Positions 5,614 through 52,795 of a stretch of DNA of 64,000 nucleotides are shown piece by piece. Each line of letters begins with the position of its first letter. The first letter of the stretch is position 1. The notes below the pieces were generated by a model. The model was not told where the DNA came from, did no database searches, and was given only the letters and a program-made list of their open reading frames with translations. Source of the DNA: Octopus vulgaris. Its lineage: Eukaryota. The stretch spans positions 6,944,001 through 7,008,000 of the forward strand of contig OX597828.1 in NCBI GenBank assembly GCA_951406725.2. Direction: 5' to 3'. Position numbers and translations under genes: made by a program.

Positions 5614-5794
5614 CGCGTGTGTACCGTCTTCCCTTCCTTGGACCTTTCCTTTTCCTATGTTTCTGACGAAGAGCTCCGCTCGAAACGTTAAACCCTCCTT
5701 CTACCCTTCCTTCCTGAGCGTCCAATAATACTATATTTGTTCCACGTCCTCGCATTGTCGTGTTTTCTCTTTGTGTTTTCATGTTTGGATTAAC
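5614..5794 (+). mobile_element. Short hammerhead-bearing element (family H1, Penelope pLTR-like), 3' end at (TA)n
   Basis: Homologous to 52594-52795 and 12994-13176; contains an HHR motif; ends TTTGGATTAAC(TA)n. Confidence 0.8.
5659..5693 (+). ncRNA. Minimal type I hammerhead ribozyme motif
   Basis: GUUU-CUGACGA-A-GAGC(UCC)GCUC-GAAA-CG-U-U-AAAC: stem I GUUU/AAAC, intact core, palindromic ACGU stem III. Confidence 0.8.
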
Positions 5795-12993: not shown

Positions 12994-13176
12994 GTAAATC
13001 CCCCAAAAAAGAAAAAGAAACACAGAAAAAAAACGCGAGAACGTGATACATGTAAAGTATTAGCAGACGCTCAGGGAAGGAAAGAAACATGATTTAACGT
13101 TTCGAGCAGACGCTCTTCTTCAGAAAGAGACGAAAGTCCAATAGAAAGGAAGACGGAGGAAGAAAATCGCCAACGA
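12994..13176 (-). mobile_element. Hammerhead-bearing element (family H1-related)
   Basis: Minus strand 13126-13093 reads UUU-CUGAAGA-A-GAGC(GUCU)GCUC-GAAA-CG-U-U-AAA; 3' end at (TA)n 12975-12993. Confidence 0.75.
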
Positions 13177-13197
13177 TGTATGTATGTATGCATGTGG

Positions 13198-42559: not shown

Positions 42560-43108
42560 TGCATGGCCTAGTGGTTGGGATGTTGCACTCTCAATCGAGA
42601 GATCGTGGTCTCAATTCCTGGGGTGGTACATCGTATTCTTGAACAAAATATTTCATCTCAAGTTGCTCTGCGATCACTTCAGCATCTCAGGTACTATGTA
42701 CCGTGTGTATGTTCAGGCAACGTTGATTTGATGCAAGGAGTGAACTAATGTACTGGACAAACATTTCATCACTAGAAACAAATCATTTGTGCAGATTATT
42801 AAGCAAGAAATTTCAGGACAATCATAAGAGCCGGTTTCCCGGTTTTCTTGGCGTATAGGTTCCCCATCTGGATGGGATGCCTGTTCGTCGCAGGTGAACT
42901 GCAAGATATAGGAGGAAAAAGTGAGCGTCACAGGTGAGAGAAATTTGTGGCGAAAGAGTCAGCAGAAGTTCGCCATTACCTTCTGCAGGAGCCGTGTGGA
43001 CCTTAGGTGTTGCACTCATAAAAACACACATCGTCCGGTCTGAGATTCGAACCCACGATCGTTCGACCGTGAGTCCGCTGCTCTAACCACTAGGCCATGT
43101 GCCTTCGC
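42560..43108. mobile_element. SINE D-like variant (+, 42560-42800) followed by SINE family C (-, 42822-43108)
   Basis: First part homologous to 51756-51982; second to the family C copies. Confidence 0.75.
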
Positions 43109-51462: not shown

Positions 51463-51983
51463 GTTTGTAAGTATGCATATGATGTTCCTTCTTTTTATTT
51501 TTCAAACAACGAATGAAAAGGCCAGAAAAACACTACCCATTCAATAAGCACTAAACGCAAAATAATGTGTAAACACAAGCAATGCACCACACATACACCA
51601 AAGTATATAAATACACAAGAAATGCTGTGTTATAACAGTTCTCGCCTGAAGATCGCAGTAGCAAGAAACTCGAATAGCAAGTCAAACTTTTGGGTTTGAT
51701 AATACTACACTCTCCCCCCACGCACACACGCACATACATACACATGCACATACACATGGCCTAATACTTAGGGTGTTCCACTCATGGTTTAGCGGTCCTG
51801 ATTTCAGTTCCTAGAGTGGGTGGTGTGTTGTGTTTTGGGGCAAAACACTTCATCTGGCGTGCTCTGCTATCACTTCGATATTTAACGCATAGTACACCGG
51901 GCAGCGGTCAGACAGCGTCGATTTGATGGAGAGACTAGGCTAATGTGCGGCAAGAACATTTAATCACTATAAACAAATCATTG

Positions 51984-52520
51984 GTAGCTGTCGGACTGGC
52001 AGTGTGAAGCGGCTGACTTCCCTTGTTCGAAGGTTATAATGGATACATATCGTGTATCAATAGCTATCTTAAGGCGGTGGCCTCATGGAGCTGACCAGCG
52101 GCAGCGATTATTCTTATATCTATAAGAATGCCATATTAATATGGCGATAACAATTAATTTCCAGTAAACGCTGTCGTAATCTCTTTTATAGAGACTTAGT
52201 AATTTTAATATTTCTATTATTGAAAACAAGTGGATGTATTCCACTGAAACTAGGTAAATATAAGCCTTCGAACAGAGACGTCAGTGGCGACACCTGCGGG
52301 GTCTGACTGCGCTACATTGACAAGGGGCAATACCCCGAAACGCGTCTGTAGCTGTCGGACTGGTAGTGTGAAGCGGCTGACCTCCCTTGTTCGAAGGTTA
52401 TAATGGATACAGATCGTGTATCAATAGCTATCTTAAGGCGGTGGCCTCATGGAGCTGACCAGCGGCAGCGATTATTCTTATATCTATAAGAATGCCATAT
52501 TAATATGGCGATAACAATTA

Positions 52521-52524
<4 letters not shown>
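51984..52524 (+). mobile_element. Retrozyme-like element: 1.5 copies of a 364-nt unit containing a hammerhead ribozyme
   Basis: 177-nt direct repeat (51984-52160 / 52348-52524, 3 substitutions seen); HHR spans the unit junction; 3' end at (TA)n. Confidence 0.85.
52301..52360 (+). ncRNA. Type I hammerhead ribozyme, U3-A8 core variant, extended stem I
   Basis: GUCUGAC-UGC-GCUACA-UUGACAA-GGGG(CAAUA)CCCC-GAAA-CGCG-U-C-UGUAGC-U-GUCGGAC; predicted cleavage after C52346 (GUC). Confidence 0.88.
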
Positions 52525-52593
<69 letters not shown>

Positions 52594-52795
52594 GTTAATC
52601 CAAACATAAACAAAGAGAAAACACAACAACGCGAGGACGTGGAACAAGTATAGTGTTATTGGACGGTCAGGAAAGGAAAGAAAGAAGGAGGGGTTAACGT
52701 TTCGAGCGGAGCTCTTCGTCAGAAACATAGAAAAAGGAAAGGTCCAAGGAAGAGAAGACAGAGAAAGAAAATCGCTAACGATACACACGCGGTCA
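52594..52795 (-). mobile_element. Family H1 hammerhead-bearing element
   Basis: Minus strand 52726-52693 reads GUUU-CUGACGA-A-GAGC(UCC)GCUC-GAAA-CG-UU-AAC; homologous to 5614-5794. Confidence 0.8.

Follow-up and report, generated by a model that had tools for sequence, protein, structure and literature searches.

We identify in the genome of Octopus vulgaris a new and young family of non-LTR retrozymes, and we find that its insertions carry the inverted repeat and the tail that together form the integration signature of Penelope-like elements (PLEs). We consider it likely that the family is non-autonomous and is mobilised in trans by a PLE that primes on both strands. What we observe directly in the assembly are the ends of the insertions and their pairing, the targets and their duplications, the read-through of the predicted ribozyme cut site, the variants shared within insertions and the conservation of the hammerhead ribozyme (HHR). 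Earlier arguments that PLEs mobilise animal retrozymes drew on co-occurrence and on the similarity of pLTRs; in this family, the scars left by insertion point to it.

A partial tandem insertion in the window

The window, i.e. the whole stretch of 64,000 nt that was analysed, contains a single-arm copy of the retrozyme (Table 1). Positions in the 364-nt unit are counted from the first base 3' of the predicted HHR cut (position 1 = 52347). A sequence-only reading of the window had pointed out a 177-nt repeat, and indeed 51984-52160 and 52348-52524 lie at a period of 364 nt and match at 98%, the three substitutions being at 52000/52364, 52018/52382 and 52048/52412. The tail segment (52161-52220) is internal in this copy. 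As had been proposed, the 3' end lies at a (TA)n run (52524-52593) and the 5' junction truncates a SINE: in an alignment with the SINE at 42562-42787 (68% identity), the interrupted copy stops at 51982-51983, where other SINE copies proceed into TGTG. The junction is one base change short of a 3-nt microhomology join between the SINE and unit positions 1-3 and may have been formed by microhomology joining. Inspection of the flanks revealed no target duplication at the window copy. It is probably a dead end, since it contains one whole HHR core only.

The window alone offers a look of two copies and nothing further, which would also suit an ordinary local duplication or a DNA-level satellite. 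However, when we checked whether the unit was single-copy, the best 40 of 2343 first-look candidates matched most of the query length at 94-100% identity, and the copies, which are dispersed over many contigs, have 3' ends that are fixed and 5' ends that vary, and show inversions as well as target duplications. The dispersal and the fixed 3' ends refute a duplication or satellite origin, to which we give practically no weight.

Table 1. Features of the retrozyme copy in the window and of its flanks
Feature	Position	Strand	Remarks
Host SINE, truncated by the insertion at its 5' junction	51755-51983	+	
Retrozyme insertion, single-arm	51984-52524	+	1.49 units of the 364-nt monomer
5'-truncated upstream partial unit	51984-52160	+	Unit positions 2-178
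Tail, about 60 nt between the two fixed 3' ends of the family (unit 176-178 and 235-238)	52161-52220	+	
Type I hammerhead	52301-52360	+	Sequence, fold, covariation between subfamilies; cut predicted after 52346
HHR distal stem I	52301-52307 with 52354-52360	+	Sequence
HHR stem I bulge	52308-52310	+	Sequence
HHR stem I	52311-52316 with 52347-52352	+	Sequence
HHR core	52317-52323	+	Sequence
HHR stem II, 4-bp	52324-52336	+	Sequence
HHR GAAA	52337-52340	+	Sequence
3' partial unit	52348-52524	+	Ends at tail-less site A, the putative reverse-transcription start
(TA)n target at the 3' junction	52524-52593		

A dispersed family of non-coding tandem units

In the assembly of 2.8 Gb, a 23-mer at unit positions 142-164 has 558 exact matches. 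We assigned 138 insertions to subfamilies by their identity to the window unit (A, at least 93%; B, about 88%; C, about 83%) and obtained 94 in A, 15 in B and 29 in C, proportions that mirror the queries used. Subfamily A is the youngest: its members differ from the subfamily's own majority by a median of 0.7-0.9%.

The unit has no stop-free frame of more than 65 codons and a GC content of 42.6%, below the 50% bound used for non-LTR retrozymes. Also in keeping with such elements, the monomer is highly self-paired and folds into a branched rod (z -7.6 linear, z -7.4 circular), with pairing outside the HHR that is conserved only partly between subfamilies: the changes in subfamily B break six pairs of the predicted rod, keep two and leave three gaps, and those in subfamily C break nine, keep nine and leave four gaps. 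At the level of the family, we found the expected head-to-tail arrangement (units roughly 150-450 nt long, with competent copies having two or more HHRs), with two to four HHR cores on one arm in 20 of 144 insertions and arrays reaching 4.7 units. The description as retrozyme-like therefore holds: the unit is non-coding, occurs in many copies, forms tandems and has a type I HHR that is conserved.

Animal retrozymes were defined by Cervera and de la Pena (2020, PMC7229834), who reported circles in coral, mussel and axolotl. The family resembles these animal non-LTR retrozymes in its non-coding tandem unit of a few hundred nucleotides (350-390 in mussel; PMC7229834), in the canonical type I HHR with a 6-bp stem I, a 4-bp stem II and a short palindromic stem III, and in its GC content of 43%, strongly self-paired monomer and coexisting PLEs. 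It differs from them in having a U3-A8 core in a full-size HHR, in its mostly short inverted two-arm insertions instead of long arrays, and in a PLE-type tail with paired start sites; a term search of the main texts of PMC7229834 and of Li, Clavereau and Pollet (2026, bioRxiv 10.64898/2026.07.22.740005) returned neither of the last two features. A plant LTR retrozyme (type III HHR in the LTRs, 4-bp target-site duplication, TSD) was rejected on account of the type I HHR and the 11-14-nt duplications. The sequence-only reading had suspected an undescribed family, and in the literature searched, which consisted of main texts and included few subscription papers, we found no report of this family or of a cephalopod retrozyme, and no description for the lineage.

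None of the sequencing runs listed as containing the stretch is recorded as RNA. Contigs from four sequencing runs, taken to be RNA by guess only, cover the unit and bridge the cut site, the deepest of them being B/C-like variants; we give these contigs no weight as evidence. An RNA-editing signature was absent (39 A>G against 39 T>C changes). The window stretch is present in sequencing runs under four species labels, and for this reason the family may extend to related species.

A conserved type I hammerhead ribozyme

The type I HHR, including its U3-A8 core, was confirmed as it had been described, with an extended stem I, a palindromic stem III and a loop II rich in A. Stems I and II are both present in the MFE fold (z -2.1), while no Rfam HHR model matched at the gathering threshold or at E<=10. 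A looser pattern of the core has 272 matches genome-wide. In 16 chosen rows spanning subfamilies A, B and C, 92.5% of the cells pair, and A and C differ at both bases of three HHR pairs (one in stem I, the first of stem II and the central one of the stem III palindrome); these are compensatory changes inherited by one subfamily and not independent events. The change at the centre of stem III preserves the palindrome, as would be expected if stem III forms between two HHRs, which is how type I HHRs of metazoans have been described (PMC4209133). Thus, motif, fold and covariation all agree with the type I HHR of a non-LTR retrozyme. The closest likeness in print is with the minimal HHR of the Schistosoma PLE Cercyon (Cervera and de la Pena 2014, PMC4209133), which has the same U3-A8 core covariation and a palindromic, dimer-dependent stem III, whereas here the HHR is full-size, its stem I is both extended and bulged, and its loop II is rich in A. 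As only one of nine Xenopus retrozyme dimers was reported to cleave in vitro (bioRxiv 10.64898/2026.07.22.740005), a good HHR motif does not guarantee activity, and cleavage of the unit described here is a prediction.

Two fixed 3' ends and paired inverted arms

What is informative about the insertions is their 3' ends. Among 192 arms, 88 end at unit positions 168-181, 89 at 229-247 and 15 elsewhere, i.e. 177 use one of two fixed ends about 60 nt apart, referred to as site A (176-178, tail-less) and site B (235-238). The 144 insertions comprise 84 head-to-head pairs, 58 single arms and two complex cases. Of the pairs, 73 combine A with B, three are A+A, none is B+B and eight have one unclassifiable end, so that the two arms use different fixed ends in 73 of the 76 classifiable pairs (binomial P about 1e-18 against free choice); one of the three A+A cases (L172) consists of two adjacent insertions merged by our grouping.

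In 55 of 79 simple two-arm insertions, the element is bordered by TA runs at both of its outer flanks. Duplications of 11-14 nt, overlapping the element ends by a few bases, were found at non-simple targets in nine pairs (L002, L023, L046, L050, L053, L082, L086, L151 and L186), and for at least five pairs in which a flank is not TA (L007, L030, L035, L163 and L176), no duplication was found. At the junction between the arms, overlaps of 1-9 nt, as defined by BLAST, occur in 44 of 79 cases. The two 5' ends coincide at only 8 of 79 junctions, which makes the self-priming account of inverted arms (PMC3846280) a poor fit here.

The family thus displays the inverted 5'-truncated arm and one-end tail of a PLE insertion, along with its AT-rich or (TA)n target and a TSD, the last being absent from the window copy. 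Inverted repeat and tail are the PLE integration signature; inverted pLTRs, one-end tails and TSDs have been described in PLEs by Arkhipova et al. (2013, PMC3846280) and Craig et al. (2021, PMC8557442). The correspondence with endonuclease-bearing PLEs covers the head-to-head inverted 5'-truncated arm, the one-end tail, the two internal start sites, the (TA)n or AT-rich targets, a similar TSD size (8-10 bp in rotifer) and 5' joins at microhomology where there is no TSD. Unlike these elements, the retrozyme has no ORF, its tail is about 60 nt and not 30-40 nt long, and the whole element is one repeating unit.

In two further loci (L115 and L158), mirror copies lie tail to tail and the flanks on the two sides are identical; one of the loci is beside an assembly gap, and both are possibly assembly artefacts or local inversions.

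Read-through of the predicted cleavage site

The 5' end of the window copy, one base from the predicted cut, had been taken as the mark of a self-cleaved template. Generalised, this reading supposes a linear self-cleaved RNA on which reverse transcription runs off at the cut, with longer arms made by jumping from monomer to monomer. We took a census of 5' ends from the first 100 of the 558 matches of the 23-mer (contigs C1 to mid-C3), which gave 102 arms, mostly less than one unit long, and used the 94 with a standard 3' end. Six of these have their 5' end at unit positions 1-10, where 2.3 would be expected, a 2.6-fold enrichment (P=0.03, uncorrected, for one of 14 windows chosen after viewing the data) that is 3-fold when all arms are considered, and the window copy and L177 do start at position 2. 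However, they are the only two of 58 single-arm copies that start there (an apparent end at position 1 in L180 is an alignment artefact), and of the 58 passes that reach position 10, 49 run on through the cut site to position 355. Genome-wide, a 24-mer across the cut has 223 exact matches, compared with 250 for unit positions 6-28 just downstream. Furthermore, two other zones are as enriched, positions 37-57 (14 arms against 6.5 expected) and 261-278 (nine against 2.9), and these oppose each other on one long stem of the fold, as do positions 1-13 and 313-334 on the two sides of the same stem. Because the enriched zones face each other across a long stem, we suggest that they reflect stalling or joining at structure.

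The cut site is at most a minor stop, since only 2 of 58 single arms start there and 49 of 58 passes read through, and the coincidence with the cleavage site is no rule of the family. The expectation that 5' ends would mark the cleaved template, and cluster at the cleavage site, was therefore not upheld. Run-off at a cleaved end is possible for the window copy taken alone; as an account of the family, a linear template seems to us improbable.

Variants shared within insertions

A marker in subfamily A divides the insertions roughly 50:50 (40:44), and its two alleles overlap in age (median 0.70 and 0.88% from their own majority). Both arms carry the same allele in all 30 two-arm insertions that could be compared, and among 11 one-arm cases the repeated units are concordant in 10. 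Rare variants are likewise shared at 9-55% within insertions and at 0-1% between them, and in L007 and L029 they are spread over all units of the arm. A crude concordance over all sites in subfamily C gave 64% within against 73% between insertions, which we attribute to alignment to the A reference, gaps in the alignment having confounded the test; concordance was reassessed with anchored markers in subfamily A only. These data show that the two arms of an insertion have the same source. That this source was the same molecule we only infer, because the pattern could also arise through local gene conversion, or if a single source locus dominated in each germ cell.

The mixed one-arm case is L030 (1501-1999), where two units of a single arm carry different alleles of the marker. 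This suggests a template switch between two RNAs, or recombination, and is unexplained by a single circle; a mix of alleles within one arm also looks like the template jump supposed for linear monomers.

Proposed integration by a PLE

The account that we favour, trans-mobilisation by a PLE priming on both strands, can be outlined as follows. Copies with at least two HHRs would be transcribed, and two HHRs, pairing via their palindromic stem III, would free a monomer of 364 nt, which, judging from the motif and from known retrozymes, is probably circularised. A PLE complex with RT and GIY-YIG activities would cut AT-rich DNA, for the most part (TA)n, with a stagger of about 11-14 nt, and each of the two 3' DNA ends would prime at a fixed internal site of the RNA, at 176-178 or at 235-238. 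Both cDNAs would extend toward the 5' end of the RNA, in most cases past the HHR cut site, until they halt at points biased by structure, and would be joined head to head by short microhomology, a sole surviving arm being joined to the upstream DNA instead. The window copy would have been primed at site A in (TA)n, extended by 541 nt and then attached to the SINE, the DNA in between being lost.

The in vitro work of Frangieh et al. (2024, PMC11167929) describes a PLE that cuts and extends both strands, two internal starts that bound the PLE tail, and a predicted dimer. In that study, HHR cleavage was unneeded for insertion, and for this reason an uncleaved multimer remains the main rival template: the HHR would rarely cut or be unneeded, no circle would form and integration would proceed in the same way. 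Read-through of the cut site fits this possibility equally well, HHR mutants of the anole PLE insert normally and unprocessed RNA is its main substrate in vitro (PMC11167929), and arrays as long as those seen here do occur. On the other hand, each round of insertion loses both ends, most census arms being shorter than one unit, so the number of units would have to be rebuilt; the rare variants found across all units of an arm (L007, L029) imply passage through a monomer; and the HHR pairing is kept across subfamilies. We hence regard the multimer as unlikely, while taking it seriously.

A stricter version of the PLE account can be formulated, in which one enzyme complex, probably a dimer, works with one RNA circle and one start site per strand, and in which tail, inverted repeat and partial tandem are products of one double-priming event. 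We put this rule forward tentatively and would not be surprised to see it fail; the start site showed no strand difference in vitro (PMC11167929). The origin of the inverted repeats and tails of PLEs has been described as open (PMC8557442), and the literature searched, with few subscription papers among it, gave no report of twin priming or of paired start-site use in PLEs. The one-end tail was already known qualitatively, and the retrozyme data sharpen this known picture of PLE integration, since the two start sites are almost always paired, one per strand, and variants are shared between arms. If the strict rule is true, the insertions are direct genomic evidence of an animal retrozyme moved by PLE machinery, and the unit is a compact substrate for reconstitution with an intact PLE protein from the same genome.

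Candidate source of the PLE machinery

PLEs have been named as a strong candidate motor for animal retrozymes (PMC7229834). More recently, Li, Clavereau and Pollet (2026, bioRxiv 10.64898/2026.07.22.740005) presented retrozyme-PLE co-occurrence and a pLTR phylogeny, mainly in vertebrates, with 24 of 57 Xenopus retrozyme families matching known elements. Many GIY-YIG matches are present in the same genome as the retrozyme (148 of 150 scored), and we examined 45 PLE loci out of 6136 first-look candidates. In contrast to Xenopus, no homologous PLE pLTR was found among these 45 loci, and none of them shares unit sequence outside the HHR. A match to the unit inside a PLE locus (L214/L232) was dismissed as a neighbouring subfamily C copy.

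A young autonomous PLE family was noted at L227:1578-5575 (G000:C4, about 116.25 Mb). It is 4 kb long, with full copies that are 97-99% identical, and it has an intact ORF of 765 aa, open over its full length in many copies, that encodes an RT followed, at the C-terminus, by a GIY-YIG domain, as well as a long repetitive 3' region. The linker carries a CxxxxCxxC motif of a kind described for Neptune and Nematis (PMC8557442). The family inserts at (TA)n targets, has two 3' ends about 35 nt apart, compared with a tail of about 60 nt in the retrozyme and 30-40 nt in print, and shows inverted arms with complementary ends in L208 and L230. Its minimal U3-A8 HHR has a core and a stem III palindrome that equal those of subfamily C. 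As it shares no sequence with the unit outside the HHR, this family is a candidate motor only, and other PLE families are present.

The PLE-like architecture of the ends also raises the question of whether the unit is no more than a pLTR, with the copies representing the 5'-truncated ends of an autonomous PLE. Yet arms longer than 364 nt wrap into the retrozyme unit itself (93 of 219 arms, in a sample biased to long copies), and among the 58 single arms an upstream flank is shared by two pairs only, one of which looks like a duplicated locus, the other being a 74% match with differing junction positions. Matches to PLE ORFs in retrozyme loci are neighbours or an interrupted old ORF (L027/L028), and a partial search found no RT and GIY-YIG ORF bounded by the unit. 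We thus judge a pLTR origin highly improbable and retain mobilisation in trans.

Three other loci deserve mention. L027 and L028 (G000:C15, 4.5 kb apart) hold an identical retrozyme copy within an old PLE ORF remnant, and the locus was duplicated together with its flanks. An older HHR-bearing end with the U3-A8 core and stem III of subfamily A lies at L179:4760-4985 and L178:4790-4985; as a possible parent, it has no ORF and six weak, diverged relatives. In the window, 52594-52790 on the minus strand is the end of a different abundant (TA)n-targeting repeat, which faces the retrozyme across the TA run. This repeat carries a minimal type I HHR motif at about 52690-52726, with a canonical core and a palindromic stem III, and has further copies in the window at 5626-5794 and 13012-13177 as well as in L014, L018, L146, L161, L212, L236 and L257.
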